Shown: piece by piece, positions 1,719-64,000 of the stretch
Layout of the letters: each line of letters begins with the position of its first letter
Position numbering within the stretch: position 1 is the first letter of the stretch
From: Blasia pusilla
Taxonomy: Eukaryota
Direction of reading: 5' to 3'
DNA length: 64,000 nucleotides
NCBI GenBank assembly: GCA_050084515.1
Contig: CM114271.1
Span: 35,154,001-35,218,000 of the forward strand
Program-made: the position numbers and the translations under genes
The notes under the pieces: generated by a model
The model's database searches: none
Told to the model about the DNA's origin: nothing
What the model saw: the letters and a program-made list of their open reading frames with translations, nothing else

Positions 1719-2207
1719 GATAGGAGAACATCACTTGAAATTCTTGGTGTTTGAGGAGAGAAAAGAGGCAAGAGAAGGCACAATTTCAGTTTGGAAGAAG
1801 AAAATTTTATTCAGAGCTCAGTGGGTGCAGATTTCAAGTGGAGCTTTGACGGCGATAAAACTTCCGAGGTATTTTTAAAGGCTTTCCCGGTCGATTTAGC
1901 CATATGGGTTTGCAAAGGCTACAACCACGCCCAAAGGTTGGCTCAAGATATCTTGTAGATCTTTTCAAGAGCTTTCCAATGCATCCAAAATTGCTCGATT
2001 CTGACATTGTGAGCTCATGCAGTAGTAATTTTAGTGTAGGAAAGTGCAATTAGTGAAGAAAAGTTGTGTAGTTTGCTCTTTACAGGCCAATTTTGAATAG
2101 TTCTTTCATACAGTTGATCAATTTTGGCAAATTTCAGGACGATTTCTGTGTAGGAGTGGTCTATGCTTCAATTGGAGAATAGAGAGCCTAAAATTACATT
2201 TTTGTGA

Positions 2208-6688: not shown

Positions 6689-6865
6689 GAAAGGACGCCC
6701 CTTGATCGGTCTCCTCAATATGGGCGCGGACGTCAACCTATCCTTGAGCAACTGGAATGCTCTCTCCTGTGGATCCCTCCATGATGATTGCAGTTACATG
6801 GATGGAAGATACATCTTGACAAGTGCAAATTCTTCTAGAAGCAAAAAGTTAGAACACACAACATA

Positions 6866-34700: not shown

Positions 34701-35937
34701 GTAAGTACAAGTGGAGATTACATCACATAGACGTGAAGAATGCCTTCTTGAATGGAGATCTATACGAGGAAGTATATATGACTCAATCACATGGATACGA
34801 GCATCCCAAGTTTCCATTTCGCGTATGCAAATTGAAGAAAGCTCTATACGGGCTCAAACAAGCTCCAAGAGCTTAGTATGGCAAGATTACACATGTCCTA
34901 CAAGATTTAGATTTTAGGGTATGTAATTTTGACTCCTCGTTATATATCTTGAGAGGACAAGATCATACGGTTCTCATTGTGTTGTATGTTGATAATCTCT
35001 TGATTATTGGGAGTACTGAAGAAATGGTATAACAAGTCAAGCTTAAGTTACAAGCAGAATTTGATATGAAGGACTTGGGAGAACTCAAGTACTTCCTTGG
35101 TATTAAGTTTATCAAGGTTGGAGAGAGCATGTGGTTACTACAACAATAAAATGCTCTTCATATACTTTCAAAATATGGTATGATGGCTTGTAAGCCAATC
35201 TCTACACCGTTGGACTAGAGCGTGAAGCTAAGAGTGGATGAAGGAGAGCTGCTTGCAGATTCTAATATATATAGGCGTATGGTTGGAAGTTTAATCTATC
35301 TAACTATAACTAGACCAAATTTGAGCTATGTTGTTGGCCTAGTGAGCCAATTTATGCAAGCACCTTGAAAACCTCACCTTCATGCTGTGAGGAGGATTAT
35401 GCGGTATGTGAAATTCTCTATTCAATTCGGGCTTCAATTTGAACCTTTTCCGAGTTTTCAATTACAGGGATTCACAGATGTTGATTGGGCAGGAAGCGTG
35501 TCTGATCGACACTCCACATTTGGTTATTCATTTACTTTGGGAAGCGCAGCTTCCATGACGACGTGGAGGTTGTGGAGTTCTTGCGCACTGGTGTCATTGC
35601 GAGTACAGTGAGTGCTAGGGAGCGGGATCGGATCCTACAAAGAGCCAAGAGGTTCAGGTGGAAGGGGACTCACATTTTGCGGGTATAGGGAGATGGTAGG
35701 ATACGAGTTGCTAATAACCCTGTGTTTCATGCTCGTACAAAGCATGTTGAGGTGCATTATCATTTTATCAGAGAAAAAGTACTTGCAGGAGAAATAGATC
35801 TTGTGTACATAGGTACACATCAGAAAATTGGTGACATCTTTACAAAGGGATTATCAAGAGATAAGTTTGAGATGTTTAGAAATGATTTGGGCGTTAGAGA
35901 TATCGATATGAGCTTGAGGGGAAGTATTGAAGATTGA
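31760..35937 (+). pseudogene. Copia gag-pol of copy 2, disrupted
   Basis: WYIDSGASNHMT protease, RCDGGGEY integrase, [28 protein letters not shown] and HARTKHVE RNase H; several stops. Confidence 0.94.
35552..35707 (+). mobile_element. Gypsy pol fragment replacing part of the Copia RNase H
   Basis: Translates HDDVEVVEFLRTGVIASTVSARERDRILQRAKRFRWKGTHILRV*GDGRIRV, matching HDDALVLEFLRT...KERDRVLQRAKRYRLEGTHILHMWEDGRVRV at 48616-49074. It is absent from Copia copy 1. Confidence 0.9.
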
Positions 35938-36449
35938 GTTACAGTCAAGCTCATGAGACACCTGAACTGTTACATTTGGTACTCACACGAAGTAGGGAAG
36001 CTTAATCTTGGTTAGTCAGTTAAGCACGATTATCTTAACTAGGATTAGTTAATCATAGTTAGTCTAACTTGAGACTAAGGTTAGAGTTAGGGTTACTTGT
36101 ACATACCCTATATAATTGAGAAGGGGACTAGCCTCCACTCGTTCTCTCATTACAAATTTCGTTATCCATGGTGGTGGTGTGTGTGTGAGAGCCATTTTCC
36201 ACCAATTATGCTTGTTTAGCAATTTTCCACAATCCGTGGCAATGCTCGTAACCTTCTCTGGCTCAACCTGACAGACATACTCATGGAATGCTTTGATATA
36301 CTCAATCCAACTAAATCTTCCCTCTCTTGAAGTTAGAAAAACTCGAGTGAAATCCATTTAGAGATACCTTGCACATAACATAGATACCTATTGGGCTATC
36401 ATAGGTTGAAGGCGTTGCTCCAATTGAGCAATCCTTGCCATAATTGGCT

Positions 36450-37465
36450 CTAATCCAAGTCCTCCACTCGATTTGGCAGGTGGTGGGGCCCTACTTCCAC
36501 CATGTCCTCAACCTCCTACATCTCGTCCCCTGCCACCTTGAGGTTCTTGACCTCCATCTAGGCGCAACTCGGAATGGAGCTTGAAACATCTCTCACATGT
36601 GTGATATTATCTTTGGCAATAATCACACTAAGGTAAAGGTTGCCTCCCTAGCCTTGGGCCACCTCATATATAGCTAAAGGTGCTACTTGCACTCCACTAT
36701 GATGTCAAAAATCTCACTAACGATGTGATCCTCCACACATCCAACAAGAAATACATGAGCCTTGCTACCTAGCGTAAGACTATATTCGTCGTGGTCGTGG
36801 CTCCCGATATTCTCCTGTAGCCCTCGCTCCCATGACTTGTTCTCGAGTAGTGCATTGTGGCAATGATGGAGACATCGTCACTCATGTCATCTCCCTCGCA
36901 GATGACATGCTTGTCGTCAACACTATCTCCTCAAGTATATTGAGCTCAATATGCTCCGCCTACAAAAATACATACTTGAGAGTATATGAAAAAACATGTA
37001 AGAGAGTTGCATACCCCACTCTAGCCCGCACTCTCTTCCATAACTCACAGTCTAGCATCGCATACAAGAACTAAATTTCCTCTGCCTCTATCACACCCTA
37101 GGTCGATGTGATCAACTGTCGGAGCCGTGCATAGGCTTCTTGTAGACTCTTACCCCCTCTCTATTGAAACTCATGAATTGACCTTAGCTTGCCAGTCCTC
37201 ACCCCTTGATAGTTCCTCCCTAACTCTTGGAAGAACTCAACCAACAGGTTGAACGCAGGTGGTACTCGGCTGTTCGAAAGACTACTCCAAGTGTCTCCTC
37301 CCTACGAGTAGTGGGTGCTACAATGCTACTATAGTTGCCACATCATACATTGCATGCCTTGTGAGGTACACATACCCTGGAGACCAAAATAGTCTCCATG
37401 CCTTGATCTTTGCCTCATGGAGAATCTTGCTTGAGAACCGTCGAGGTCCCCTCATGGACCCATAA
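36450..37465 (-). pseudogene. Gypsy gag relic, related to the gag at 60300-61680
   Basis: 37100-37265 is visibly homologous to 60905-61070 (AAGAACTCAACCA..G.GTTGAAC; LQEAYARLRQLI vs LREAYTRLRRLI). Boundaries are approximate. Confidence 0.7.
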
Positions 37466-40749: not shown

Positions 40750-42260
40750 GTAACACGCTAGTAACATGTTGTGCGCATACACATCGTTACACAATCCATA
40801 TCGATGGTCACATCTACACACCACACAACACCAATCTTCCCTAACGTACAGATAGATCCACACATAAACAAAAGATACTCACGCATATAAGAGTGAGGAA
40901 GATGGCTTTCCCAAGCCATCTTTCTCATGTAAAATCAAGAGTAGTAAAAATGGCTCATCCGGCCTAAAAATCCATTCATGAATCTACATCGGCATATCGA
41001 ACCACATCCACCCTGTGTTATGAGGAAATCCGGATGCTGACATCCTAACTCCTACATACCCACACTTGTCTATGCAGGAGAGACGCTCCTAAGGCTCAAC
41101 ATGAGAAAGATGGCTTGGGAAGTCCATCTTCCTCACTCTTATACTGTCGTGCGCATACTCTCCTTGAACGTCAATCTTAGTGTTGCGGAAGCGTACGTTC
41201 AGTAGGACACGCTCTCATCGCCAACCTCCACCCAAACGCACTCACGTTAGTCTAGCTTTGGGTCAAGCGACCTTCCAACCCACCGAGTCCTCAACTCAGA
41301 ATATCATCAAGCTCAACCTTCCCTCATTCCTAGGTTCCCTACACGGGCAAGCCTTCCGAGACTTGGGACACACTTTTTGGTTAGTCCAAGAACTTGAAAC
41401 GGTGTTTGCGCGCCTAGTGGTCCCAACTGTCCAACGGACCTCGCATGAGCCCCTAACCAAGACTCCATAATATGAGTCGCAAGTTGGAATTCAAAAGGGA
41501 TCTCCAAAATTCCTCTATTGAACTTGGTTTGGGTTTTTAAGCCCAACACCAAACTCACGATTCGTTCCGTGCCCTTGGGTCGTCCCGCGGTGCCCAAAGT
41601 AGGGTTCGAGTTCCAAGCACTCTTGGAGATCTTCCCCCTTACTAGTACTTCTGGGAAACTCCGGGGTCCCCCTACCTTTGGGAAAGACCACCCAGCCCCT
41701 CTTTTTGGCCCTCAATCCGACTCCTCTTACATTCGGTTTTGGCCCATATCTCAACTGCTACGCAAGCAGTTGCAAAGGTCTTTGGTGCATTGGAGCTGGC
41801 TTGACATAAGCTTTCCAATGCTTCCTTACTTATCCCAAACGCTTCTTAGGACTCACAGTTATGGTCAAAAGTACAATAAAAAACTCCCAAACGCTGGCCG
41901 CGTCTCAAGTCCGGTTTTCACCCCTTGGCGCGTCTCGTCCAAGACTTGACTTCTCTCAAGTCTGAGTACCACATTTGCTTCCGATTTCTTGGTCTTGACC
42001 ACAACTCACAAAAAGTTTGAAACGCTCGCCTCGCTCGCGTCTCGCCCTTGTGTTTCCTTAACTCCCAAAGCGCAAACCATCCTAGCGTCAACTCGCTAGA
42101 GTTCGGATGTTCCGCTTGGCGCTTGTTTGGTTATGAGGGTCGCGACATATACCCTTGGGAAGAGCCAAAAGGCTCTTTCCCCAAAATAGCCCTACCAATG
42201 ATAACATGTATGCATAGGTTATCGGGTGACCGTTGACTCGGTCAATGGGTCACATGTTGG
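40750..42260 (-). repeat. LTR-like repeat (family B), split by the solo LTR at 41145-42147
   Basis: 40770-41144 plus 42153-42190 is the reverse-complement homologue of 46340-46740 (TATAAG..GATG..TTCCAAGCCATCTT; GTGGATCTATC; GTGTTGTGTGGTGTG). Ends are approximate. Confidence 0.65.
41145..42147 (-). mobile_element. Solo LTR (family A), 1003 bp
   Basis: Termini TGTCG...CGACA; perfect TSD TATAC (41140-41144 / 42148-42152); reverse-complement homologue of 44587-45578. Confidence 0.93.
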
Positions 42261-42791: not shown

Positions 42792-43008
<217 letters not shown>

Positions 43009-46339: not shown

Positions 46340-46740
46340 TTTTTGGGGGAAGAGCCTTTTGGCTTAGAGTCTTCCTAAGGCTATAAGAAAGCGAGAGATG
46401 ACATTTCCAAGCCATCTTTATGATGTTGGGCCTTAGAGGAACTTCTCTTGCTTTGTGTATAGTAGGAACTAGGGTTCTAGCGTCCAGATTCCTTGATAGT
46501 GGAGGGTGAATGTGGCTTGATATCCCAACGTAGATTCAAGAATGGAGTTGGCCGTGTGAGCCATTTTTAATCTGATTTTGGCCGTGTGTACATACATGAG
46601 TTCATTTCTAGCAATTGTATGTATGTGGATCTATCCATATGTTGGGAAGATTAGTGTTGTGTGGTGTGGATGTGACGAGCGATGTAGATTGCGTAGCCAT
46701 GTGTATGTGCACGAAATGCTCGTGCAAGAAAAACGTAGGA
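46340..46740 (+). repeat. LTR-like repeat (family B) fragment
   Basis: Homologous to 40770-42190 in the opposite orientation. Confidence 0.6.
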
Positions 46741-47393
46741 GAGGCTTGTCGTGCGAATCCACATTGTCATACAACATACATCGCCGATATACCATACTCA
46801 CATACAAACATAACATAGACGAGAGCATCCACAAACAGAAGTGTACCACAACTGAAAGACTGTGAAAGACCTACTGTCGTAAAATATGTATCGAATCTCA
46901 TACAATCGAGCCAAACCCACTCCACGATGGGAGAATCCAGGTCGAAGCTTGCGGGAACCACCATAGCCAAGAGCTCTACTCACTACCAAGGCTAACTCCC
47001 AACGCAACAGGCTCAACTCAAAGAACTAACTGTTCTTTGAGTGCACTCCACACTATATCCTCCAACCTAAGAGCGGGCCCTACTGGAAAAGTCACCCTCA
47101 ACTGAATAACCCCCAATCCTATGTATGAAACCGCATCTCTACCTAGACACTACGACCCTTCATAAGGTATGGCCTCTACTAGCACAGTATACTCTACGAC
47201 ATAATCCGTATGGTCATGACAGTTGTCGTGCGAATCCACATCATCATACAACATACATCGCTGACATACCATACTCACATACCTACATAACATAGACGAG
47301 AACATCCACAAACACAAGTGTACCACAACTCGCCCCCCTAACAGGGGGTTAGGTCTCTCTAACTCCCAAGTAGCCCTATACATCTACTACAAG

Positions 47394-49074
47394 CTATACA
47401 CCTTCGTGGGTGCACGAATCAGAAGGCCGGGTGCTAGGTTGCCCCATCGTTAGTCGCACATAAGTACATCGAGGACAAAACCACCTTCTAGTAGGAACAA
47501 CATCCATACGTGGAGTCAAACACATCATGTGCCAACCCCTAGAACACCGATCACACACCAACATACGGGCTGCGTTACCAGCAGACCCACACAACATGCA
47601 CCTCAAGCTAGCACGTATCATGGTTAAGCTTGGGTCAACAGTACCATCCACATTTGGAAGATGACATGGCGTACAATTACGCACATGGTCCTTCCAAACA
47701 ACTCCATCACGACCCTCCAACATGAGAACTCCAGAAGCTAACACCTCGCCCACTCGTAAAATAGTGCGGCCTGCCATCACATCCAACGTTGTCGGTGCAA
47801 TCTGCTGCAAATAGACATAGCCCTCCACATGGAATCTACAAATTGATGGTTGATAACCTCCATCCCAAATGGTTGCATACCGCAACGTATCCATGTGTTG
47901 AGCAATGGCAAGATTCTCAAAGGCTATCGACATAACTCTCCGAAAGAGCTCTGCCTGCTGAGAACACACTCTCATCCACATCTCTGGGTAATCAAGGTTT
48001 ACCACCTCACTGGACTCCCGAATAATTGCTGCGGGCAAGTCTGGATCTCGGCTGTATAACAAAAAATAAGGTGAGAAGGAAGCCAAGGATCCTTGGCGAC
48101 TGAACCTATACCCCATGGCTAACCATGGCAACTGAATATCCCAGTCTCCAAGATACCCCTTCTCTAGGCCATACTTGCGCAATGCCCTCTTCACCGTCTG
48201 AACCACACGCTCAGCCAAACCGTCCGTCTCTGGATGATCTCGAGACCTGGTCTGATGGATCAATCAACGCCTTGTCACACAAGACCTGAAACTCACCCTG
48301 AAACTCTCTACCCTGGTCGGTTAGCACTTCAGCTGGTGCACCAAAATGACTAAGCACTCTATCAAGAAATGCATGCGACGTTCCTTCACTTGCCTTGTCA
48401 GGTAATGCCACCAACTCAATCCACTTGGAGAAGTGCTCCACCATCACCAACACATATCGATGATGTCGTACACTCAACGGTAACGATCCCGCAAAGTCCA
48501 CACTCCAATGATAACCCAACCCCATAATAGGCAAGGGATGTAACTGTGGTATAGGGGCATTGAATGATGCCCTCACCCGGTCACAAACCATACAACGTGA
48601 CACCAACTGCTGCACCTAAGTCTGCATGCCACGCCACCAATACTGACCAAGGAGTAAGCTATACATACGCTTTACCCCAAAATGTCCCAACTCCTCATGG
48701 GCATGTCGCACAATGCACTCTCTCTGAGCCAAATGCAACACTACTCGTACTCTACCATCCTCCCACATATGGAGAATATGTGTTCCCTCCAATCGATATC
48801 TCTTAGCACGTTGAAGAACACGGTCTCGCTCCTTGGGACTCACTATGCCTGGCATCCTACTGGTCCGTAGGAACTCCAACACCAACGCATCATCATGAAT
48901 ATCACACTGATCCGTACCACCATCTCCAACCTTAGGATCTGAAGGTTGGCCATCTACCCTCTGACTAGAGTAAGATGTCATGTGGTCCTCCATACTAGAG
49001 TCCACCCCTAACCAACAAAAAAAGGCGGATGCATGCCAACCTGACACCATCTCCTCATCAACCTCCCATGCCAT
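47394..49074 (-). pseudogene. Gypsy integrase (HHCC + DDE) with C-terminal PHD finger (47466-47600)
   Basis: HAHEELGHFGV...CMVC; DFAG, TDQGREF, GLAER; PHD C4HC3 CMLC-x11-CDRC-x4-HMMC-x14-CPRC with the typical P..W.C ending. One stop and one frameshift. Confidence 0.93.
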
Positions 49075-49163
49075 CTAGCCCCAGTTGCATCCTCTTGGCT
49101 AGTACATGGGTTCCTACTCAACCCATCAGCATCAAGGTTGGCAACTCCAGGTCTATGTACCAC

Positions 49164-50450
49164 CTAGAAGTCATACTCCTGTAAGATAAGAGCCCACCGT
49201 GCAAGCTTCCATGTAAGCTTGTCAAACTCCATCAACCACTTGAGCGGCTGGTGATCAGTAACAAGGGTAAACTGTGTGCCAAACAAGTAACACCTAAAGT
49301 GTGCCACAACCCACACTACTGCCAAGCACTCTCCCTCATATGAACTGTAGCGCAACTCCGCTGCATTATTCGAACGACTTACATAGGCCACCACAAACTC
49401 CATGTGCTCATCATCATGTTGTATCAACACCGCTCCAAGTCCCAACCTACTCCAATCAGTGTGTAACTGAAATGGGTGCCCTCTGATAGGTCTCCTCACG
49501 ATAGGCGCCGTCACCAACTGGGCCTTGAGCTCCACAAAAGCTCTCTCCTAATCATCTCCCCAGTGCCACTCCTGATCTGATTTCAGCAATTAGTTCAAAG
49601 GCTTTGCCATAACACTAAATCCCTTCACATACCTCCGATAGTAGTTCGCCAATCCCATGAATGCCCGAACTCTACTCACATCTACCAGACAAGGAATAAG
49701 TGCAATAGCCTCCACCTTTGCTTGCTGAACTCCCAAACCACCTGGATAGATCACATGACCCAAGTACTCAACATCCTCATGGAAGAACTTACACTTTCTT
49801 GGATGCAAACGTAGACCATGAGCTTTCAACCGCTCAAACACAATCTGCAAATGTATCTGATGCTCCTCTAGCGTGTTACTGAACACCAAGATATCATCAA
49901 TGTAACACTGAACAAAATCTAACCTTGCAAGGATCCTGTCCATCACTCTCTGAAACTCGGCAGGTGCATTCTTCAACCCAAAGGGTAAGAATTTCCACTG
50001 GTACAAACAATCCTTGCCATGAGAGTTGACACCCCAAAATGCTGTCTTGGCCTTGTCACTCTCTCGAATCGGCAACTGATGGTATCCTGTCCGAAGATCC
50101 AAAGTATTGAAAATTTTTGCATGTCCCATCATATCAAAGATCTCCTCAGGTGTAGGCATGGCATACCTATCACCCTTGGTTTGATGATTGATATGACGGT
50201 AATCTCCACACATATGCATCCGCCTATCCGTGTAGTTGCCATGCACATCCTTTTTAGCAAGCATGACTGTGGCTGATGCATACTCTCCATGCGACAACTC
50301 CACTAATCCAGCCTCCAAAAGGTCCAACGTCCTTCTCTGAATCAGGTCCCTCTCCATATCACTATATCCGTAGGGACGACGGAAGATTGGAGAATCACTA
50401 GCCAAATCAATCCGTATACCGGGTCCATCCAAAGCGCCCAACTCCTTCAT
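49164..50450 (-). pseudogene. Gypsy reverse transcriptase and RNase H
   Basis: MCGDYR, LDLRTGYHQ, KTAF, LPFGLKNAPAEFQR, YIDDILV; RNase H LHTDWS, YSSYEGECLA, TDHQPL, KLARWALILQEYDF. Confidence 0.96.
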
Positions 50451-50859
50451 GCTAAAGGCAAAATAACTCCTATAAGCACGTAGAAATTATGTCAATCGTT
50501 GTTTCTCACCTCCCGTAAGCTTGGGCCCTAGTAATAGATCCCAAGTCTCCTCCATTGGTACACTAGAGGGAGAGGACGACGCCATTGGCTGCTATGCAAC
50601 CCCCTCACAAGATGGTCCACCCTTATCTACACCATCATCTGAGCAAATAACTCCTCCACCAGCATGAGCAACCAACTCCACATGCCCAGCCATTACATCC
50701 CATTTACTCCAAGGATGCAAAATACTATTCTCCTCGCCCCCAACCGATGTCTCTACCGTCTTGGTAGCCATCGAGCTCATCACAAGGGGTGGAAGAGCCA
50801 CACACATAGTCCGAAGTCGACGTTGCTCGGTCATACCAACACTCAAAATCCAAGTCAAA

Positions 50860-51450
50860 CAATTCAAGTCCATGGCCTGACCCAACACATGAAGTCGTGA
50901 AGCCTCAGAAATGGAAGCAACCGTTGTCACACGAGTAGCAAATCCCATCGCACGCTCTCTCTCATCCAAGATACTATCCACTATAAGGCAAGGATCCCGC
51001 TGCAGTGCATCACATGCTCGACGTAGAACCTCCCTAGGCAACAAGTTTGTCCACCACAAGAGTGGACGATGTGCACGCGAGCCAACTCTCGCTGCATCCA
51101 ACAACACCGCTGGTCCAATCCAAGACCGCACCTCATGAACACTTGCCATCATCCGGGTCCAAGTGTCACCCAACAATGGAAAATTCTCCAGAATGTAAGC
51201 TGGAGCACGTGCCTGATGAACCTGAAGATGTCGTAACACCCGTAACATCTCCCAAAATAATCGAGACCTAGGGTTATGTAATCCCTTACCACGACCAACA
51301 CATGTATGACCCTGACATGGCCATCCAGCAATCACCAAATCCACAGGACCATCCTCTCAAGGTCCTTCGCCCCCAACAATGCAATGTGTGATGGCAAAGC
51401 ACGCTGGTACCCACAAATAGATGATGGCGGCAAAAACTCAGGATATGTCC
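50860..51450 (-). pseudogene. C5-cytosine DNA methyltransferase domain within Gypsy pol, motifs IV-X
   Basis: VDLVIAGWPCQG (motif IV, Cys codon 51315-51317), RSRLF (V), YILENF (VI), SRAHRP.LWWTN (VIII), ERERAMGF (IX), VLGQAMD (X). Confidence 0.92.
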
Positions 51451-51546
51451 GTGTTGCGATTTTTCACGTCCGGACTTCCGTAACATTCGGCACGTCGCCG
51501 TCGAAAGGACGACGAGACCCAACGGTCAGCTCAACGGCTAGAAAAG

Positions 51547-51554
51547 TATAAATA
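51547..51554 (+). promoter_or_regulatory. Candidate TATA box of the insert gene
   Basis: TATAAATA followed by a pyrimidine-rich leader, ~280 bp upstream of the ATG at 51828. Confidence 0.5.
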
Positions 51555-53011
51555 GGGCAGAAGTCGCTTATTTCCGGTTTCTCATTTTGCGATCTTCATT
51601 CCTCACTCCTCACTCTCCCGCGTAGCAGCTGATCAGATACGAAGGGGCATTTCACGCGGCGACACATCGCGAGTCGATAGGACGGAACGAGAGCGAGATG
51701 GTTCGACCGGCGATATCGGGATGATTCGAGCTAACCACCAAGGCGAGACGAGCTCCCATCTCGACATCAGCAAGGCGATTGATCAAGGGATTCGTCGTGG
51801 ACATAGGCGGAGGCATTTCCGGAAAAAATGACGAGGAAAAAAACACAAGCCAACAAGTCCGGGAGCTTCACTCCCAAGTCCATTAGGACTCCTGCGTCAG
51901 CTTCTCTTGCGCCTCGTTCGGCGAATGAAATTAGGCATCAGGAAATCGAGGAGCGGGAAAGGGAAGCGAAGATGCACAACCAAGTGCTTCTGGCGAGACG
52001 TGTTCAAGCGGCGCTAGATAAACAGAACGAAGAGGCCGAGACGTCGCAGGCCTTGAAGAAAAGGATCGCCGACAAAAAGAGAGAAAAGAAGCGTCTGGAC
52101 GCGTCGGTGAGGAGGGCGGAATCGGCTAAAGCGAGGCAGGAAAAAGCGATAGCCATCGACGATAGCCCAGCCCGTCCAACCGCAAGTGTTGAGATGCGGG
52201 AAATGTCCCCCACGAAGTCGGGGGACACAATCAACATAGTGGAAACAACACCAGTTCAACTCGATGACGACGAGGTCATGAGGACCGCCAACGTGGAGAT
52301 GGTGGACATGGCGGAAGAAGCCGGAGAGCGGTCATTCTCGACTCCAAGCCCGGCGGAGGACATCGACCTCTATTGGATCGACGAGTTCCCAGTCGATTTG
52401 CCAGCCCCTGTCTCAGACAAGTTAGCAGGTCAAGAAACCGACTCCATTTTCGAGCGGGTAAGAGAGGTTAGGTTTTCTTAATTATGTGAATTGCAATTCA
52501 TTGGGATTTCGGTGTAGCTTATTCCTCTTGTCCCGGTTCGACGGTGGTAAAGCAGATGGCACTCATGGAGGGCCACAACGCCCGAGGATTCCCACTGCCG
52601 ATTAAGGACAATGGAATACGCCCGCAAAACTGATCCGACGAGGATATCGCAAAGCCAAAACAATCGGCGATTTACAAAGATCCACGTGGGCTTTTCCTCC
52701 CTTCTATATTCAGCCTTACGACGAGCATGGAACCCAAGCTCTGGTTACCGAGGAGGACTTGGAAAATCTCGACACATTCTGGAGGATGCGATTGAGGCCA
52801 CGGAATTCAGCTGGATGAGGAATCTGCATTTCTTCATCTGGGATGGAAATCACAGGTTCATGGCGTGGACCAAGTTTGCGGAGGAGCGCCCCAACTCATT
52901 GGAGGCACATTTCTGCGTGAAGGCAGTGGTCCTTCACCCATACCCTCATCACATGGCGACGGTGGAGATGGCAATGCATGCCATGAACACGTAAGTATCT
53001 TTAACACTTTC

Positions 53012-53770
53012 CCAACTCGTCGGACTCCGACGAGTTGCTCGATTGATGAATGGGTTAGGTTTGTTTAGGCAGAAAGCAACTCGTCGGACTCCGACGGGTT
53101 GCTAGATCGCACTGATTTTCGAATGTCTTTTAAGATTGACACTTGTTGGACTCCGACGACTTGTTTGATGGAACATAGATTTAACTAGTTTTGGCCCAAA
53201 GCAAACCGCCGAGTCCGGACGGGTTGCTGACAAAGCCGCCTTGTGAGGTTGTTTTTAAGAATGCAACTCGTCGGACTCGACGAGTTTCTCGAAAGTGACC
53301 GCAGTTTAGAAGGTTTTGCCCCAAAGCAACCCGCCGAGTCCGACGGGTTGCTTTGCCTCGGTTATTTTTCCTAATCAACCCGCCGGACTCCGACGGGTTG
53401 CTTTGGGGCAAAACCTTCTAAACTCCGCGGTCACTCGAGAAACTCGCCGGAGTCCGACGAGTTGCATTCTTAAAAACAACCTCACAAGGCGGCCTATCGA
53501 GCAACCCGTCGGACTCGACGGTTTGCTTTGGGCCAACAACTAGTTAAATCTATGTTCAATCATACAAGTCGTCGAGTCCGACGAAAGTTGCAATCTTAAA
53601 AACATCTGAAAAGCGTGCGATCCAAAGAACCCGTCGAAGTCCGACGAAAGTTGCTTACCTGGCATTAGCAAATCTGAATGCAACCCGTCGGACTCGACGG
53701 GTTGCATCATTTAGCTTGTTGCTAGAATCCGACCGAAGTGCGTGACGACCGGTCGAGTCCGACGGGTTGC
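53012..53770. repeat. Array of ~13 palindromic 26-27-bp repeats (GCAACCCGTCGGA[C/G]TCCGACGGGTTGC) with ~35-bp spacers; central part forms a ~600-bp inverted repeat
   Basis: Units start near 53012, 53077, 53139, 53201, 53263, 53326, 53376, 53439, 53501, 53564, 53627, 53680, 53745. Arms 53068-53351 and 53376-53662 are imperfect reverse complements. Confidence 0.92.
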
Positions 53771-55911
53771 AGTGAACCCATGTAATTGCCTGACGGGTTG
53801 AGTTTGGATGTGCAGGATTGTATCGAGGGGAATGTTACCCACCATTGGATCCGGATCGCGATCGGGTGAGGAAGGTGCTTACGACGCACCTAGGAGAGTA
53901 GAGGGAGTTCTTGGGCGATGCCCTCGTCAATCAGATGCTTGCAAAGGGTGCTCAAATTAAGAAGAAAACTTGGGCAAACAAGTTTATTTCTCAAGATGCA
54001 CCGTAACCATCCTTTGCTGGTCGAAGATACAAAGCCCAAGAAAAGCGCCTTTGGACCGAGCCGAGCGGAGGGAGAAGGTATCTGCGTCGAGCGCCAAATT
54101 CATCAAGGCGCCAGATTCTGCTGCAACGAAATACACGGCGAGCAAGATGCAGCGATACATCAAGCATTCTCAACCCGAACTTGGTCCGGAGTTCTACAAG
54201 GAGCTCAAGGCGATTATCAGCGTCGGCCGGAAGAGGGATGAAGATCCGCATGGTCGGATTGGGGAGAAAGTGTCGATGGATCGCGTGCATCGTTTTGCGT
54301 TATCCGGGATTAGCGAGTTGGGAGGATACGATCGATGAAAATCGTCTCGAGGGCTCGAGAGGCCGGAAGAGGGCGGCACACCATCCTCCAGGTGTGTCCG
54401 ATCCGGTGATCTCGCATTTCGCCACGCCGAATGGCCGTTCTAGGACGCGCGTTATGGTAATCGGGAAGTCCCGTCTGGGGATCCGCAAGCGGAGCTCGAA
54501 GATTAGAGCCCATTCGCCGGAAGCAAACCTTGAAAGTTCTGGAGATTACGAGGTTTGGCTCGACGACATCCGGGACAAGCCAACCAAGAACCCTGGATTC
54601 AAGACCATGTTCAAGGTTTGCGTCCTCCCTCAGGCAGAGCTTGACGAAGAAGTAGAGGGTAACAAACAGGATCAAGCGAAGAAGAAGCGAGATCTAAAGG
54701 AGCAGACAGCCGATAATGTTCAACTAAAAGCTGCCCAACGGATGGTATTCATGTACCTCATCCAATGTAAGAACGCAGGTACGTGGGGAAAATTGCCGGT
54801 AGCCTTGAAATTGTGGGCTTCGCCGCCGGATGCAGAGACATTCTCCATGTACGACGTGGAGATGGGTCAGCACATGTCGGATTGGGAGGTGGAGAATTGC
54901 CCCATTTGGCTCGACTTCAACGACCCTGAAGACATCGCGGATAAGGACTTACAAGTGCTTCATGATGCAGTGGCCTCAGGACAAGACGACATCCCCAATT
55001 TCGCCCACCAAGACTTCTTCGGAGGAGATGCAAGAAGAGCAGGCCCAGAGATAGTGAGTTGGCTTCAAGGTCCGGACAGCCAAAGACAAATCCACAAATG
55101 GTCTCAAAGGCAAGGCGAGGGAAGGGAAAAATTCAGAGGCCGAGACTTCCCAAAGAGAGCTCTGAAGATGAGAGGCCGAGGCGGATTCGCCCCGGACGAG
55201 CGGGAAGAGAGGGTCGGACCAAGTCCTCGGCGAAGAAAACGCCACGAGAATCCGAGGTCATCGAAACCCCGACAAGCCGTCCCGGACTAGAGAGAATCGG
55301 AAGCGAGAGGTGCCGGGTTGTCCCAAGGAGAATACTGACCCATCATCCTTGGGAAGACACAGACAAACAATGACCCGGACAAGCATCCTCCTTCATTTCA
55401 CCTCTTTCTTTGGATGAGCCGAATGAGCACTTGGTTCTCAGCGTCGACAAGCGCCATCGAAAAATTGACAACGCAGGAAGGAAGCTCCAACTAAACGGGC
55501 ACGCTGCTGGACGGTGAATGGAGTGGTGGAAGAGGTTGCGGTGGATCTCTTGATCGCCGATCGCCCCTCGGGGTTGCGACTTTGGGGCTTAAAATCCGCG
55601 GACGAGGTACCGAGTGGAATCGCCGCTCACTTATGACCAGATTGCACTTTTGTTCTCCTTTGCACGCCTATCGAAAGTGACAGGGCTCGCTTCTTGGTGT
55701 TGATTGGAGGGAGCGAGGACGAGCTCTTCAACCTCCAAGGCGTCAAGAAGTCGCTAAAGTGGAGGATGGCACAATCATGGTTCATCAAAAACAAGTACCC
55801 ACTCCGATCCGCAACGAGTTAGATTCGGGTAAGGCTATATTCTGCACAATAATTTCAATTATCTTATAATGATGTGTATAATGAGAGTCGATCTGGTTTT
55901 TTTTGTCAGTG

Positions 55912-56246
55912 AGCAACCCGTCGGGAAGGCGACGGGTTTCGGGCTTAGAGCAGCCCATGCTCGGTTGAGAGCAACCCATCAGTTTTCGACGGGTTGCATC
56001 TTTCCCACATACGAGGGAAAACGGTGTACGCAACCCGACGGGTTGCGATTGATTTTGTTTTGGATGCAACCGTCTAATAGCGACGGGTTGCTCAAAGAGC
56101 ATGGGCTGGTCTGGCCAAAGAACCCGCCGCCTTCCGACGGGTTGCATCCAAAACCAAAATCAACTTGGAAAACCAAAAGCAATTGCAACCCCGGGTTCCG
56201 GACGGGTGGGTCCGGACAAAACAACCCGTCGGACTCAGCAAAGTTG
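55912..56246. repeat. Second, more degenerate array of the same palindrome (~7 units), in the last intron
   Basis: GCAACCC...GACGGGTTGC units near 55912, 55971, 56030, 56065, 56120, 56185, 56221; three more partial units at ~57041, 57089, 57159. Confidence 0.85.
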
Positions 56247-58683
56247 ATCCAAAGTCGATTATTGAAAATCTTCTCTAGGCAACTTCTTTAGTTTCGACAT
56301 TGTTTTGTCTTTGATTTGAGATGGACCACTCCTACGTGTCGCTTCATTCGCCCGAGCACAATTTCCAGGTGTTCAAGATCCGGATCCTGTGGATCCATGC
56401 TCGATGGGTACAACTTAGATAGTTTGTACAATTCCCCCAGGAATTTACATGCAAGGCGAGACCCGCTTCGAGGAAGGAAGGAAAAGTCGCCACCGATGCA
56501 ACGCTCATCGAGCTCTGCTCAAGGCCGGGTGACTTGGTGTTCGACTTAGTGGGCCTTTCAGGGCGAGTATCGAGGCGCTGGCAGAGTGGCAGAACATTCT
56601 CCGCCTTGAGGGAAGGCAGAACTGTTTGACCTTTGCAAGGAGGCAAAGCAGAATCTGAAAGGCTCGTTGGGGTGTACAACTCTCCACCGGGGCCGAGAGC
56701 TCGGTTCCAGAGCCACCCTTGGTAGTGACTCCATCGTCACTTCCAACGATTCCCAAAATTGGGAGGGCAAGGCCGAAAGTGATTTTGCAAGAGCTCTCTG
56801 ACGATGACGAGTGAGTTCAAAGAACTCAATGACCTAGCTTGACTGGCAGCAGCGTTTGGAGTAGGGAGTTTTTGATAATTTGGCAAAAGATTTCATAGAA
56901 TAGATCAAATGTACTGATTCGAGCTTTTTCGGATGATATAAAGTAAGATTTTTTCGATCGATGGTGGTGCTTGTAAATGTTTGGTGATCATTTTGTCTTT
57001 TCGAATGTGATCGTCTATGTACTACACGGTCTTCTACTTTGCAACCCATCGGATTTCTCCTGCTTGCAATTTTCACTTTATGACCATCGCAACCCGCCGG
57101 ATTTCTCCTCCTTGCAACTTTTCGCTTTTTGACCATTGGACCCTTTTACCACCTCCAGGCAACTCGTCGATTCCGACAAAGTTGCCTCGATCGGACCCTT
57201 TTGGATCAGCGATCTGGCGGGCTTCTTCCTTGGCACCTTCCCTCAACTCGTAAAGGCGGCGAGGCTTCTTTTCTTCTCTCGACGTGTTGGATTCCTTCTA
57301 CCTGTGCGGTTGCCATAGTGGTATTACAGGGGGACGGAGTAGATATTGATATTGGATGGGTGTCACATTGCAGAGCGTACAAGGTATACTGCCGAGGAAG
57401 GCGGTGGGACTCAAGACAGGTTACATGGGACCGTTATGGTGTACCTAGTGGGGGCCCAAGGCTCTCGAATTCGCCAAAATTTTGGATCCCCGTCTACAAC
57501 CGGCCAGAGGAGCCATTTGAATCCCAGGACATTCCTTTGGTATTGTCACCGAGGAGAGTTAGGAGTAAATTTGTAGATGACAAGGCTGAAGAAATCATAG
57601 ACTAGGTTCAATGTACATTTCCGAGGTTCCTTCGGAGGTAATAAAGGACGAGATTTTTTGAACCCATAATGGTGTTTGTAAAAGTTTTATGGACTATGTT
57701 TTTTGGACTTGTGGAGGTGGTGCAAGAGAAAGGCCCAAAGAAAGAAAGTCGCCCAAGAACAACTCAAGAAGATTGTACAAGATGATAATGCAGCCAAGTC
57801 ACTCCATTGACCTCAAGCTTAGAGGAGACAAGGGAGATGGTGTAGGCACTAGGGAGTCTCCAGGGTATCCAATGAAGGAGATAGAGTGCTTGATTGCTGT
57901 TGTAGAGGAGGGTTTGAACCAAGGGGATGGATCTGATTGTTAGGGCCAAGAAATGAAGAATAAGGGGCTAAGAAGAGGTCAATGGAGGCTGAGCTCAAAT
58001 GCTTGGAATCTTGTGGGCTAGAAGATTCCTCATGGAAGCCTAGAGGACCTCATTTGAAGGCCATAAAGCTTGAGAATCCAAGGGAGAGATCTATGGAGTT
58101 GAGAGGATCCAAGGAGTGATTTCTGGAAGATTTGTGTAGGTGGAGCTAAGTGGAGGTGTGAACTGAGGGCGGGGCTCGAACTAGATTGAGAAGAAGCAAG
58201 CATGGGAAGAATATAGAGGTAGATCTCACCTTCAAGCATGTCCAAGAGACAGGTCGAGCCTATGCCATCAATGTTGCTCAAGAGGCTTTAGTTAGGGTGT
58301 TGAAGTAGATGAGGTAGAAATTTCAGGCAGTAGATGCCTTGGAGTAGATGCTTAGGGTTGGCATCCGGGTGGTCCTCCAACAAAAATACCAAGGGCACTG
58401 CTTTTTGTTGACCGAGATGAGGAGATGGAAAAATGTTTGTAGTGGTCTTATGATGTCTACTTTTTTTTCGCCCCAAGGAAAAAGGAGGTTTTTTTAGGGC
58501 CAAATGTGGACCATTACCTACTCTCTTCTAAAGATTTCATGGATTTGAAAGCAAACAAAAATTTCAAATATGTCATAAAGTTTTGAAGAGAGGAGGCGGA
58601 TTTGGCCCTTTTTTTTGAAGAGAGACTCTCCTCTCTTCCTCTCTTCCTCTCCTCTCTTACTCTCTCCTGCCAGAATACCAGGC

Positions 58684-59460
58684 CCCGGTGCTAATCCCTC
58701 CAAAGAGATCTAACAATCGAATACCCTCCTCCAGGATACACCACACAATGGGTGTGGTATCCAAGGGTGTCATCGTTGCACTCCCTGCTACCTCGGGTTC
58801 CTCAGACCTGTCACGCTCCACTGCAAACGCCTCGCTCCACACGGTCTGCACATGCTCATCTGCCAATCGTCGAAGCTCCTCAATCGAGCCCCACAACGGC
58901 ACCTCTCCTCCACAGAATGATACGGCTACGATAACACTCCTCTCCATAGAAATGTCAGGAACGGGACTATCCTCTGCATGGACATGCCCCTCAATCAAAT
59001 CACTAGGCCAAGTGATGGCATTGCTAAATGCTGCTAAGGTCGCCACCTCTCCTGGCCATCGCTCGATCACTACACCTATGAATCGAACGGGTAATGAGCT
59101 AAGGCGCCCATCACCTGACTGCCATCCTGGTCTGTAGGACGTTGACTCCTCCCAATAATCCAGGGAAAACCCCATTAGGTATAACACTGCTCCACCAACC
59201 AAGACGTTGTAGGACTGTGCATCAGTCACTATCGCCTTGGCTCGCACCACGGACTCATCTGTAGGATATCCCGGGAAAATCCTCACCACGACCTCATGTC
59301 GGGGGATATACTGTGTGGTACTTGCTCCACCCAAGGATGTCTATATGCGGAATGGACAACGCTCCACATCAGCTCTCGTCAAGCCCAATCCTCTAAATGA
59401 CGCTTTCCCCAACATCAAGGTTGCGCTCTTGAATCCAACAAGACGCGCCGCGGACTAAAA
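58684..59460 (-). pseudogene. Gypsy aspartic protease, linker and DNMT motif I
   Basis: RRVLLDSRAQP (D-S-G site, mutated) near 59420-59450 and YNVLVGG; in-frame downstream GIRLLDLFGGISTG (SAM-binding motif I, 58684-58713). Confidence 0.85.
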
Positions 59461-60297
59461 GCTCTACCTTCAGGACTCACCAAATGGAAGACCGCTCCTC
59501 GGTCATCCAGCAACACAACACCAGGAGAAGCCATGGCACGCTCTATCGCGGGTCTAGCGGGCATCTCCGCCATCCTAGCAGCCGCAGCCTTCCATGAATC
59601 TGACGTGGACGGCCCGAGCATCAGCTCCAAGGGCAGGTCCATCACCTCCTCTACAATCACCTCTAAATGTGATGCACAAACTACAACTCCACGCTCATAT
59701 AGCGTAGTGGCCAGCCGAAAAGCCTTGGCGGGCGTTCCCCCAACGTCATAACATTGGAAGCAGAAAATAAAGGAGCGCGGTACACAATGGTGGCCGCCCC
59801 CAACAACGTGCTCAACACATGCCCCTCTTGAGCATAAACAATAGGAGTCATCGACTCGCTTCTCCCATCGCCCTCCGTGCGTGCACTCCAACAACATCAC
59901 CAACTGTTTAGGAACTCTGATCAAGACCCATCGATGGGGTCCTCATCGCCTCGGACAACGTGAAAGACGAAGGAAGCCTAGTCTGTTTCCTGGCTTCCCC
60001 TCGCTGTGGATCCAACTCTACATCTCCTCCATGCATCATAATTGTGGCTGCATCCATCTAGGCAACCGCGCACATCCAACCAGGATCCTCCATATCTCTG
60101 GTTGCTCCATATGATGTCGATGCCACGGACCCGACATCGGGTAATCTCAATGCCATAACGGCAATCTACTCTTGTAGCTGATGTATCTGAGCAGCCATCC
60201 TAGCCTCACGCCCAACATCTCCCTCGACGCGTCTAGGTGGTGGGACTCTACCTCCTCCACGCGGAGCTCCACCACCATGTCAGGCAACTCTAGCTCC

Positions 60298-61682
60298 TCA
60301 TCCCCCAACGGGACCACCTGGTGCACGATCTCTAGGCCCACACGGACCGATTACTCGCTCTGGTGCCTTGTCTGGCCCTTGGTCCGGACGTAACTCAGGA
60401 GGTAAAATGAAACACCTAGCGCGTGTATGACCATACCTCTGACAATAGTCACAGTGATAACCTCTTGGTGCAACACTATCTCCTCCTCCATGTTGAGGCA
60501 TACGTCCATGACCCTCACGAGTGCAATCGCGCTGATGATGGGCTCCAGCACATGACCAAAAAGTAATAGTAGGCGGCTGCTGCTTAGCCGCATATGAAGG
60601 CGCAGGTCTTTGTGGCACGGCCTCCCGGTATCCTCCCTAAGCTCGTGGTGCCACAGTCGACCTATCTCGGAGTCCACGTTGCTGCACAGGTAGTGCAGAC
60701 AATCGTGACTGCTCTCACCCAGAACCCATGGTGGCTACGCTCTCCTCCGCCATGTTGCGCTCAATGTTCTTGGCGTTCCTAAAAACATCTCTCAATGTAG
60801 GGGAGGTGTTCATAAGAAGCACCCCTCCCGCATCCGTATCCGCAGGGTCCGGTCGAGCATCGCATATCATGACTGGATAGCCTGAGCCTCTGTCACCCCC
60901 GGATTAACGTTGATCAACCGGCGCAAGCGAGTGTAAGCCTCACGCAAACTCTCATCCGGGCGCCTCTGGAAGTCGTGGATGCTCCATAACTTCTCTGTCC
61001 GTACCCCCTGGAAGCTTGCCCTCAACTCAGCAAAGAACTCAACCACGGAGTTGAACTTGGGAGGAACTCGACTAGACGGTGCAACTGCTCCAGTGCAAGT
61101 GACCCCTCCTAAAACATCACTAGTGGAAGAGGAAGTAGCCTCTCCTAACTCCTCCTCCTCATCTAGGAACGGCTCCGTCCATGACACATAGCGTGGGTCA
61201 TAGTAGAGTCGCCATGCCTCAATCTATTGTGCATATCTGTAGAAGAACTCATGGTAATCGTCCATGGATGCCCCCTCTAAATATTGGAACATACCGTTCC
61301 ATGCTGTAAACGGGTTGAACTCTCTAGAGTTCCTAGCCCGCTGTGAGTCACACCAACTCCTAAACTCCGCAATGAAGTCGTGTAGCTCTATGGTGCCTAC
61401 AGCACCCGAAAACCTACATGGTCCTCTACCCCGGTCGACCATCTCGTACGCCCAACTGGTAGGACCACTCAATGTGTATGGTGGATCACTAACACACTCC
61501 TTTACATGTTCCCCCTCGTCTGAAGACGACACAGAAGGAGATTGAGATGGTCTCTCACGTGGAGACCCTCGAAACCTCGCACCACTCCGGGTAAACCCTC
61601 CAAAGCTACTCTCAGGTCCACTACCTCGCCTCTCAAAATCCTGAAAAGACGCCGTGATGGCCCTCGTGCCCCTCTCACACAA
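60298..61682 (-). pseudogene. Gypsy gag
   Basis: FQRRPDESLREAYTRL (major-homology-like region); zinc knuckle CDYCQRYGHTRARC (CX2CX4HX4C); fragmented. Confidence 0.85.
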
Positions 61683-62849
61683 TCACTCTCAACCTCACGA
61701 GTAATCCCTCAATCACTCATCCTAAACATGCGGCACTCGATCTACACTCTCCCTCCCCGTGACGTGTAACGTGCGGCAACAAGCGGCGTGGTGCGGCAAA
61801 TCGACCAGGCTATCATCTCATCGACAACCTACCCTCAACTCCGAACATCCCACACAGGTCTATGTCCCCTAAACCACATATATAAATGATGCTCTCAGCA
61901 TCCATACAACCCAATATCCCCAAATAAACTACCCAAATCCCAGAATTCCTACGCATGCAGGGTAAAGGACCAGAATGGGTAACCTTAACACATGTCGATG
62001 TCGCTCCTCAGCAACTGCAAATCTCGATCCCAACTCGGTCGTGGAGACAACTCCTCTAATCAGAAAGTCATATTCCTCCCGTATTGACGCTCCTCAAAAC
62101 TCCTCGATGGACACTGCAATTCCAGCAGAACGGTGGGGCGTTGCAGGCGGTATAGAACGGCTAGGAACGGCATGGCCCTTGATGGTAGGATCCGACACTC
62201 GGCAGCATACCCTCCTCAATCAACAATAAACCCACACTCTGCTCCACAATGACAGTGCAGCTCCACGATCGAGACGGTGCGGTGCAGCCACGAGCAGCAT
62301 GGCGCGGCAATCGGCGGCACGTTGCGGCTACGGGCGTCACGGCACAGTACTCAATCGTCATCGAGCAGCAACCAATCATAACATAGCAGCATGAAATCAA
62401 AACTCAAACACCATAACCGGAGGTCATCTACCATCACTGGTTGATGACGAAACTGTGATGACGGTGGCGGCCAAACCAAAGTACATGCTGGCGGCGCAAG
62501 TCAGAGAATCAACGGTGGTCGTGGAAGACCCTCCACTTCATAATGGCGGAAATGGCAATCAAAGGGTGGAAAACGTCCAAATGCGGCTTTGAGCAACGCT
62601 GGACAACGACAACGACCGACGGTGGCCGGTGGATGGTGGATGGTGGACGGTGACGGTTGATCGTTGATGGTGACGACGGACCGTTGACGGTGATAGTTGA
62701 CCATTGACGGTGACCGTTGACCGTTGACCGGTGATGGTGACTATGACGGCGACGACCTCCGCCGGCGTGGCGGCTGGTTTAGGGTTTGAACAATTTAACC
62801 CTAAAAATTGCCTAGCAATGGCAATTTTGCAAGATTGACCATAACTTTT

Positions 62850-63832
62850 TACTCGCAACTCAAAATTGCGCACTGTTTGCTGCACAACGTGCATAGCTTC
62901 ACGATCTATGACGAAGTCAAAAAATATTTGGAATTGGACATTCCGGTAAAAATTGATGGGGACTGTTGTAAAGCCCAATGTCTATTTCTCCTACACAAAA
63001 TTCGGCAGCACTTCCGTGCTGATTTCTCCCAACGAAAATGTAAAACGTGTGAAAATACAAATCAGCAAGCTACATGGTGCTCCCGAGAGCACCAGCATGG
63101 GGAAACCCGCCCCCATAATCAATTCCTATCAGAAATTGGGTAGTGCTTCCGCGCGCCACTCTTCCACACAAAAAATCGGCAAATGCAAAGAACAATCAAA
63201 GGAGCCCTTGCTCCGGTGAGCACTCCCATGAGCCGCTGAACCGGGAACACGGTCCCCAACCTGAAAAAATAGTGAGTGACGAGCGAGCTCCCCCATGAAG
63301 CTCTCTCACTCTCTCATTCTCTCTTTGTAAATTAAGATCCAATCTCTCTCTACACCATCTCACACCATAGCTCTCAAAGGTGTGCACTCTCTCTCATGTC
63401 AAACCAAACCCACTCTCCTAATGAGAGGCTTGGGTTACACTCATAAGGCAAGGGACCATAGCTCCGCCGCCTCATGCCAAGAGGTTCAACAAAGAGAGAA
63501 TGAGCTTTCAAGCTCCCTCTCTTGGAGGTATATCCCCTTTCCTCTCCCAAGCCCTCTCAACGGTAACCTATGCTCGTAGGTCACCTCCTTGGCTGTTGAC
63601 CCGCTGTAGCGGATCAAGGGCTACTTCCCAAAGTGGAAAGTCAACTATCCCCAACATGGAAACTTATCCGAAATTGTAAGTTTCTCTATATGACCTCTTG
63701 AGGCCCCGGGAAACCTGCTCTCTCAGATTTCCCGGGGCCTCAACAAGTCATTCTCGACCTCCTGGGCTTGTACTCCACTACTCATGCAAACGCTCTACTA
63801 GATCCCACCGATTTATTCTAACAGTTGTGACA
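62850..63832 (-). repeat. LTR-like repeat (family C), second copy; may extend left to ~62400
   Basis: Colinear with 1-958, sharing the ...GTGACA terminus; left end and TSD not identified. Confidence 0.7.
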
Positions 63833-64000
63833 AGGATCTCAATTAATGATGGATAGGAGTGGAGCGCGAGTTGTACGTGATTTCCCTTTTCTTAACCCAT
63901 ACCACGTGAAGGTTATCTTTGTAGATAGGCGCTGGTTTACTCGTTATCTAGTCTACCACTTTGGGGAGGCATTCATGAACTAGGTTATGCAATCACCAAC

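Follow-up and report, generated by a model that had tools for sequence, protein, structure and literature searches.

A stretch of 64,000 bp from the land plant Blasia pusilla (contig CM114271.1 of assembly GCA_050084515.1, forward-strand positions 35,154,001 to 35,218,000; hereafter the window) carries on its minus strand, from 46746 to at least 62300, what is very probably a decayed copy of a Gypsy retrotransposon with a DNMT3-type DNA methyltransferase. The plan of its family appears to be two consecutive frames, separated by a stop codon and enclosed by split direct repeats. The domains follow one another on the minus strand as gag, protease (PR), cytosine-C5 methyltransferase, reverse transcriptase (RT), RNase H (RH), integrase (IN), and a PHD finger, as determined by Pfam and by tblastn with relatives (Table 1). 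All Pfam domains of the element lie in the stop-to-stop minus-strand frames at 61.7–47.4 kb. The Ty3/Gypsy order PR–RT–RNase H–DDE integrase, together with a CCHC knuckle in gag, is present (domains by Pfam, order by tblastn), and the RT is 83–85% identical to the RTs of two related loci, L001 and L003. A first-pass annotation, made from the letters of the window, had proposed a Gypsy-type element with a cytosine-C5 methyltransferase between protease and RT, and this proposal is borne out by the Pfam domains and the tblastn order.

Table 1. Features of the Gypsy-DNMT3 copy in the window, listed in the direction of its reading (L, related DNA loci; P, homologous proteins)
Feature	Positions	Strand	Basis or remark
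5' leader, family-level match continuing	61446..62300	-	Sister-copy RNA and DNA align up to 62300, the end of the compared stretch
gag with CCHC zinc knuckle (60453-60412)	59929..61445	-	tblastn to P0163, P0165, P0173; Retrotrans_gag match weak; eight in-frame stops
Protease region ending in DNMT motif I	58684..59786	-	tblastn to P0163 residues 523-893; stops at 59417, 59343
DNMT motif I, LDLFGGISTG	58713-58684	-	Motif search
Foreign segment, 7,232 bp	51452..58683	.	tblastn break; RNA loose ends at both edges
DNMT stretch ahead of motif IV, different frame (1-nt shift near 51350)	51356..51451	-	tblastn, motif search
DNMT3-type methyltransferase, motifs IV to X, internal deletion ~50964	50595..51356	-	PF00145, 9.4e-07
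DNMT motif IV, GWPCQG	51326-51309	-	Motif search
DNMT motif VI, ILENFP	51194-51177	-	Motif search
DNMT motif VIII, SRAHRPLLWWTN	51080-51045	-	Motif search
DNMT motif IX, ERERAMGF	50963-50940	-	Motif search
DNMT motif X, LGQAMD	50885-50868	-	Motif search
Conserved in-frame TAG between DNMT and RT	50592..50594	-	Same codon position in L001, L003, L004
Reverse transcriptase, YIDD at 49904-49887	49590..50486	-	RVT_1, 5.2e-34
RNase H	49164..49547	-	RT_RNaseH, 1e-35
Integrase zinc-binding region and DDE core	48211..49074	-	Integrase_H2C2, 9e-09; rve, 5.9e-13; one stop (48618) and frame changes
Integrase C-terminal region with terminal PHD finger (C4HC3, 47600-47466)	47394..48263	-	PF00628, 1.6e-10
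Repeat B1	47223..47330	-	Direct-repeat comparison
Repeat A2, between B1 and B2	46854..47222	-	47041-46864 similar to each of the two A copies in L003
Terminal repeat B2, 3' end of the element	46746..46853	-	108-nt direct repeat of 47223-47330, 93% identical

Intact relatives were aligned to the window by tblastn. The gag match covers 61445-59929, and the protease match runs through motif I of the methyltransferase (59786-58684) and then jumps to 51451. It continues with the stretch preceding motif IV in another frame (51451-51350), with motifs IV–VIII (51350-50964), and with motifs IX–X down to 50622. RT and RNase H follow at 50543-49068, and the integrase and the PHD finger at 48939-47445. 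The protease active site persists as the remnant VLLDSRAQ (59444-59421), in which DSG is changed to DSR.

Six cytosine-C5 methyltransferase motifs are found on the minus strand in the canonical, non-permuted order I, IV, VI, VIII, IX, X. The first-pass annotation had named the same six in the same order, and all of them were located, motif I at identical coordinates. It had also named a PF00145 match as a check; the 254-aa open frame at 51356-50592 gives this match with an E-value of 9.4e-07 and 29 bits, above the cut-off of 22. When 1.84 billion representative proteins were searched with this frame, 1086 were found at E ≤ 1e-3 and 307 at E ≤ 1e-10, a number which, for a sequence search, is far beyond chance.

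The type of the enzyme was determined by comparison with solved structures only, using profile and fold searches against PDB. All 29 matches at E ≤ 0.01 to P0161, a relative with the complete domain, are DNMT3A, 3B, or 3C. A 12-sequence profile finds DNMT3A (2e-27), then 3C and 3B, well ahead of DRM (5e-15), M.HhaI (6e-12), and DNMT2; DNMT1 is absent among the matches listed of this search. Chains of plant DRM align in a permuted register only (query 18-144 to chain 230-348), and the circular permutation of DRM enzymes, with motifs VI–X before I–V, is not present in the window domain. The AlphaFold model of P0161, built with a 60-sequence alignment, has a mean pLDDT of 85.8, and Foldseek ranks only DNMT3A/B/C structures at the top of its PDB matches (E ~1e-17, target TM-score ~0.8). 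By these searches and this model, the domain is of the non-permuted DNMT3 type; of the earlier label 'DNMT3/DRM-type', the first half is kept and the second is dropped. P0161 has more residues than DNMT3 between motifs VIII and IX (88 versus 63 in the PDB alignment). Mammalian DNMT3A and 3B and plant DNMT3 share with the element's enzyme the fold and the motifs of the catalytic domain; unlike these host enzymes, it lacks a preceding PWWP or ADD region and is fused to Gag-PR instead.

The copy in the window is dead, as had been supposed from its letters. It contains 16 premature in-frame stops and at least five frame changes. In place of about 35 DNMT codons, corresponding to the motif II–III region after motif I, there are 7,232 foreign bases, and the missing codons were not found anywhere in the window by relaxed tblastn. 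The break lies exactly at 58684|51451. It had been suggested that 58684-58760 be joined to 50860-51450; in this copy, the domain lies in three frames, one for motif I, another for the part ahead of motif IV, and a third for what follows. A further loss is that of the target-recognition region between motifs VIII and IX, where tblastn jumps from residue 1091 to residue 1137 of P0163 (~45 residues) at 50964/50993; RNA reads have loose ends at the same site (50964/50966). Motif VIII no longer has its second arginine, another residue standing in its place.

The foreign segment itself is an unclassified repeat. No Pfam family was found in its four ORFs (open reading frames), it has neither terminal inverted nor terminal direct repeats and no second copy in the window, and a comparison with ESM Atlas gave only sub-threshold matches to unnamed clusters. 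Its plus-strand ORFs of 224, 147, and 427 aa belong to no Pfam family. Clusters of ~25-nt palindromes (CAACCCGTCGGACTCCGACGGGTTG-like) are located at 53013-53774 and 55958-56248. There is almost no RNA from this segment, yet it is covered by DNA contigs of the best-matching sample.

Three RNA-seq runs with the same species label as the best-matching DNA set were aligned to 46700-62300 at a likeness of at least 90%. The depth is ~50–165 over the pol part, 7–59 over gag and protease, and drops to ~0 in the foreign segment. First mates align to the plus strand, which in the usual stranded libraries corresponds to minus-sense RNA, that is, to the sense strand of the element. A likeness of 99% or more is reached by only 16–22 of ~4000 reads per run; the source of the reads is therefore sister copies, not the copy in the window. 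The reads have loose ends exactly at 58684 and 51451, and their in-frame continuation is the sequence of intact relatives at this place; therefore, the transcribed sister copies have an uninterrupted DNMT there. In this species label, transcription of sister copies follows the sense strand of the element. About half of the RNA reads have an additional base at 49065. A recurrent joint connects 47925 to 48942, skipping 1016 integrase bases with 16 other letters between, and is covered by 16, 26, and 35 reads with the first mate on the plus strand in the three runs. The related locus L005 has no RT through integrase core. Internally deleted derivatives without the integrase core are transcribed and are presumably non-autonomous.

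Substitution rates were compared between the window copy and its relatives. For the DNMT, dN/dS (the ratio of nonsynonymous to synonymous rates) is 0.29 against L003 (242 codons) and 0.22 against L001 (129 codons). The values for RT are 0.12 and 0.11 against L003 and L001, respectively (252 and 296 codons), and those for the integrase C-terminus with the PHD finger are 0.24–0.26 against L005, L004, and L003 (184–236 codons). In the close pair L001–L003, dN/dS is 0.5–0.75, as expected for decay after insertion. As estimated from these sequences, the DNMT is under purifying selection between lineages.

The domains of the window were mapped onto 229 fetched homologous proteins, and two domain orders can be distinguished. 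Class A, with the order of the window, (gag)-PR-DNMT-RT, comprises 73 of the 229 homologues; class B, RT-RH-DNMT-IN-PHD, comprises 58; 97 contain DNMT alone, and one has only the integrase and the PHD finger. Uninterrupted class-A ORFs of 2188 and 2327 aa are present in P0011 and P0156, with the order CCHC-PR-DNMT-RT-RH-IN, and L003 and L004 have the order GAG-PR-DNMT-RT-RH-IN-PHD. Numerous unnamed metagenome contigs have the domain order of the window, as do homologues from Marchantia, Calypogeia, and Sphagnum. The first-pass annotation had stated that its reading would fall if relatives of this RT never carried the domain at this position; the class-A relatives do carry it there. Class B is exemplified by L013, L018, and L020 and by proteins such as P0026 and P0079, in which the catalytic motifs are retained; in L013, a gag frame and one in-frame stop come before an intact frame of 2027 aa. 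Catalytic motifs, including the catalytic Cys of motif IV, ENV, and RxR, are kept in 54 class-A and 50 class-B domains.

Proteins with organism names were searched twice: the first search listed 74 matches, and a profile search, in which 8000 candidates were scored, listed 36. The 74 matches listed include 16 gene models of Marchantia polymorpha, two proteins of Calypogeia fissa, two of Sphagnum, and one of a 'Candidatus Obscuribacterales' metagenome-assembled genome (MAG), the rest being unnamed. With 16 annotated Marchantia polymorpha models, the earlier remark that such a domain is rarely noted next to a land-plant gene does not hold for this family. In a FastTree phylogeny of 136 DNMT domains, constructed without an outgroup and rooted at the midpoint, the 54 class-A rows are completely separated from the 50 class-B rows, although the support of the central branch is weak (42). 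The window copy belongs to a clade of 19 rows (support 99) together with Marchantia, Calypogeia, and Sphagnum sequences.

One protein of the tree, P0188, is named 'DNA cytosine methyltransferase [Candidatus Obscuribacterales bacterium]' and comes from a 2.4-kb MAG contig. The bacterial origin which it suggests was rejected: P0188 nests among gag-PR-DNMT proteins with branch lengths of 0.04–0.07, and judging from this position it is probably a misbinned transposon fragment.

The first frame of the family consists of gag (CCHC), aspartic protease, and DNMT and ends with UAG or UAA; the second, in the same reading frame, contains RT, RNase H, DDE integrase, and the PHD finger. The earlier placement of the methyltransferase 'inside pol' is correct insofar as the domain is part of the polyprotein, but it does not lie in pol in the usual sense, being the C-terminal part of a gag-PR-DNMT frame. 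The stop between DNMT and RT occupies the same codon in all four DNA copies with a locatable motif X: it is TAG in the window, L001, and L004 and TAA in L003, each time followed by CAR CCN ATG. Gene models of Marchantia and Calypogeia (P0163, P0164, P0165, P0166, and P0162) terminate at this stop, and those which continue into RT skip the stop region. A comparable arrangement of two in-frame parts with a single stop between them is described in the text on gammaretroviral gag-UAG-pol (murine leukaemia virus, PMC4178896); in contrast to that virus, the stop of the element follows PR and DNMT rather than gag, and its readthrough is inferred. If the stop were read through at a low rate, as in gag/pol of gammaretroviruses, the particle would receive the methyltransferase as Gag-PR-DNMT, produced at about the level of Gag, and RT-IN-PHD would be scarce. 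By analogy, we give such low-rate readthrough, with abundant Gag-PR-DNMT and scarce RT-IN-PHD, about an even chance.

The PHD finger at the end of the integrase retains all its C4HC3 zinc ligands in the window copy. It is found in all eight class-A metagenome loci that reach the integrase C-terminus (L003, L004, L005, L007, L009, L010, L011, and L014) and also in class B. Translations of L010, L013, and L018 contain it intact, that of L005 is one ligand short, and P0156 has no PHD finger. The nearest solved PHD fingers are those of KMT2C/D, CHD4, DPF2/3, ATXR5, KDM5A/B, BAZ2A/B, PHF21A, and UHRF1, most of which read the unmodified H3 tail. Chromoviruses likewise have a chromatin-reader module at the integrase C-terminus; theirs is a chromodomain, presumed to choose insertion sites via histone marks (mentioned in bioRxiv 10.64898/2026.05.21.726589), whereas that of the window element is a PHD finger. 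We know of no chromovirus with a methyltransferase. The PHD finger would tether the integrase to histone H3 tails and thereby select the chromatin into which the element inserts, a role like that of the chromodomains of chromoviruses; the chances that it steers integration in this way seem to us evenly balanced.

The termini of the family are split direct repeats and not plain long terminal repeats (LTRs). The complete layout A-coding-B-A-B is present in L007 and L014, and L003 contains A1, B1, and A2 up to the end of its contig. The window copy has B1, A2, and B2 at its 3' end. Its positions 47041-46864 are 77–78% identical to the A copies of L003 (6294-6462 and 15041-15173), and its B2 is 83% identical to B1 of L003. 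An LTR pair was not found within the window, and a comparison of 44–47.5 kb with 61.5–64 kb revealed no direct repeat even at word size 7. The end of B2 at 46746 fits the 3' limit of 46747 given earlier, while at the 5' limit given earlier, 62200, no end of the element can be demonstrated.

Two observations concern the flanks of the copy. A ~0.95-kb block located 5' of the gag leader (62852-63832) recurs at the start of the window (3-958) with 84% identity; the copy at 3-958 directly adjoins a minus-strand Gypsy RNase H fragment (961-1445), which is 72% identical to 49034-49472. This block may belong to the family as an additional part, or it may be an independent repeat interrupting both copies. 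On the other side, an element of ~6 kb with long inverted repeats (40765-42147 versus 46718-44587, 69–82% identical) ends 28 bases from B2.

The closest known system is KnitGypsy-Dnmt3 of the alga Klebsormidium nitens. According to the text of its description (PMC5890265), it shares with the window element the Gypsy-type domains, an intronless, non-permuted Dnmt3-related domain within the polyprotein, a streptophyte host, conserved catalytic residues, and purifying selection; its DIRS-type A-coding-B-A-B repeats are matched in full by the relatives L007 and L014 and by B-A-B in the window copy. It differs in its host: the window element belongs to a land plant, and its named relatives are liverworts and Sphagnum. 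The text of that paper contains 0 mentions of PHD and none of a stop between DNMT and RT or of the position of the domain, so the algal element may or may not differ in these respects. De Mendoza et al. (2018, Nat Commun 9:1341; PMC5890265) place the acquisition of the DNMT 'in the K. nitens lineage' in this text, and later papers, where they cite it, say 'streptophytes (Gypsy-DNMT3)'. SymbioDIRS-Dnmt3 of Symbiodinium, described in the same text, also has a DNMT3-related domain in a retroelement polyprotein and the A-coding-B-A-B layout, and its de novo CG methylation was demonstrated in yeast; unlike the window element, it has a tyrosine recombinase instead of a DDE integrase, a DIRS-type RT, and a dinoflagellate host, and its authors infer independent acquisition (PMC5890265). 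In the searchable literature, which leaves subscription journals and supplements outside, no description of Gypsy-DNMT elements in bryophytes or land plants, or of five Marchantia gene ids, was found. A kind of retroelement already known from the alga Klebsormidium is thus present in land plants. Three details may be new or only unreported: the stop that parts DNMT from RT, the PHD finger of the integrase, and the domain order of class B.

What the element would gain from the enzyme can be proposed by analogy. The methyltransferase would travel in the particle and methylate the new cDNA or the fresh insertion de novo, so that a new copy would arrive already bearing host-like methylation. Methylation of cDNA or new insertions is proposed in the text of de Mendoza et al. 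for the DIRS-borne enzymes (PMC5890265). For the present family we offer this role tentatively and put it somewhat below an even chance. The copy in the window is incapable of the readthrough, methylation, or PHD-tethering roles.

Three other explanations have to be considered. The enzyme may act elsewhere than on cDNA: on host chromatin around insertions, in self-silencing that limits copy number, on RNA, or as a DNA-binding module. The substrate is a matter of inference in the present analysis, RNA methylation is raised in the text of de Mendoza et al. for a LINE-borne enzyme (PMC5890265), and the PHD finger suggests that the element engages chromatin. However, the catalytic Cys, ENV, and RxR conserved in both classes, together with purifying selection, argue against a pure binding module, and the closest solved relatives are the DNA enzymes DNMT3 and not DNMT2. 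Action at another target appears to us rather doubtful, if a little less so than an independent origin of the bryophyte elements. The latter would mean that they gained the DNMT independently of KnitGypsy-Dnmt3, a convergence within streptophytes. Repeated capture of DNMTs by retroelements is reported in the texts of PMC5890265 and bioRxiv 10.64898/2026.05.21.726589, and the two DNMT positions in related elements point to a mobile module. Klebsormidium proteins are absent among the 74 and the 36 matches listed of the single-sequence and profile searches, but this absence is weak evidence, as the searches were word-limited. The set of features shared with the algal element, namely Gypsy-type pol, a non-permuted DNMT3-type domain, and the A-coding-B-A-B layout given for it in the text of PMC5890265, is unusual, and we consider convergence unlikely.

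It could also be supposed that the DNMT motifs are a fragment of a host DNMT3 gene, the result of a one-time capture, or an assembly chimera of the window copy, given that 7.2 kb interrupt the domain, the parts of which are in three frames. However, the junctions of PR to motif I and of motif X to RT recur in independent sequences, from three named genera of bryophytes as well as from many metagenome contigs, the RNA reads of sister copies bridge the break, there are no introns, and DNMT and RT share a frame. This explanation is extremely improbable.

The boldest reading is that bryophytes, including Marchantia polymorpha, host live retroelements with a DNMT3 writer at Gag level, RT-IN made by readthrough, and a PHD finger reading H3, that the DNMT moved or was re-acquired between two positions within the same PHD-bearing lineage, and that the split repeats point to a replication cycle unlike that of LTR elements. 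We regard this combination as possible but, taken as a whole, improbable. A number of points weigh against the main reading, that of a Gypsy-DNMT3 family with two frames and the roles proposed for it. The stop between DNMT and RT was not found in the class-A group L007–L014 or in P0011, readthrough is argued only from the conserved stop and its context, and the stem predicted 3' of the stop has thin support (four close sequences, with 3 of 29 pairs compensatory). An intact land-plant element was not seen, because every readable DNA copy of the bryophyte clade (window, L001–L006) is degenerate. Repeat A1 and the true 5' end were not found in the window, and 61600-64000 contains no A copy. DNMT activity in the family members is predicted from sequence; the one test in print, made in yeast with the Gypsy DNMT of Klebsormidium, yielded no methylation, a result judged inconclusive by its authors in the text of PMC5890265. 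Finally, homology with KnitGypsy-Dnmt3 is suggested by shared architecture only.

The remainder of the window contains other repeats and one piece of a host gene. Two Copia-like copies, 1403-5990 and 30953-35548, are 89% identical over 4.6 kb and have flanking repeats of ~310 bp (1403-1706/6378-6688 and 30953-31258/35925-36231). Fragments related to the gag of the family (~40% to Marchantia P0163–P0165) and to Gypsy RNase H are located at 36391-37410 (minus strand) and 6689-7466 (plus strand). By sequence matches, the window is a tangle of remains from related retroelements. An exon of a host gene for an ABC1K7-like (aarF-domain) kinase lies at 24348-24833 on the minus strand, and its best full-coverage matches are from liverworts (Marchantia, 52–54%, and Riccia), as would suit a liverwort host outside these two genera. 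A perfect microsatellite with a 6-bp period occupies ~210 bases at 42795-43004.

The family calls for caution in the use of annotations: transposon fragments are included among the 'DNMT3' genes counted in bryophyte annotations, and at least one MAG protein labelled 'bacterial' is of this sort. It also bears on a puzzle that has existed since 2018, namely why a transposon carries an enzyme which hosts use for transposon silencing. The sole example from the plant lineage had been algal, and its enzyme gave no result in yeast. The liverwort and Sphagnum family would make the question testable, with transcribed copies in the species of the window and many gene models in Marchantia polymorpha, in which knock-outs, methylomes, and transposition assays are routine.

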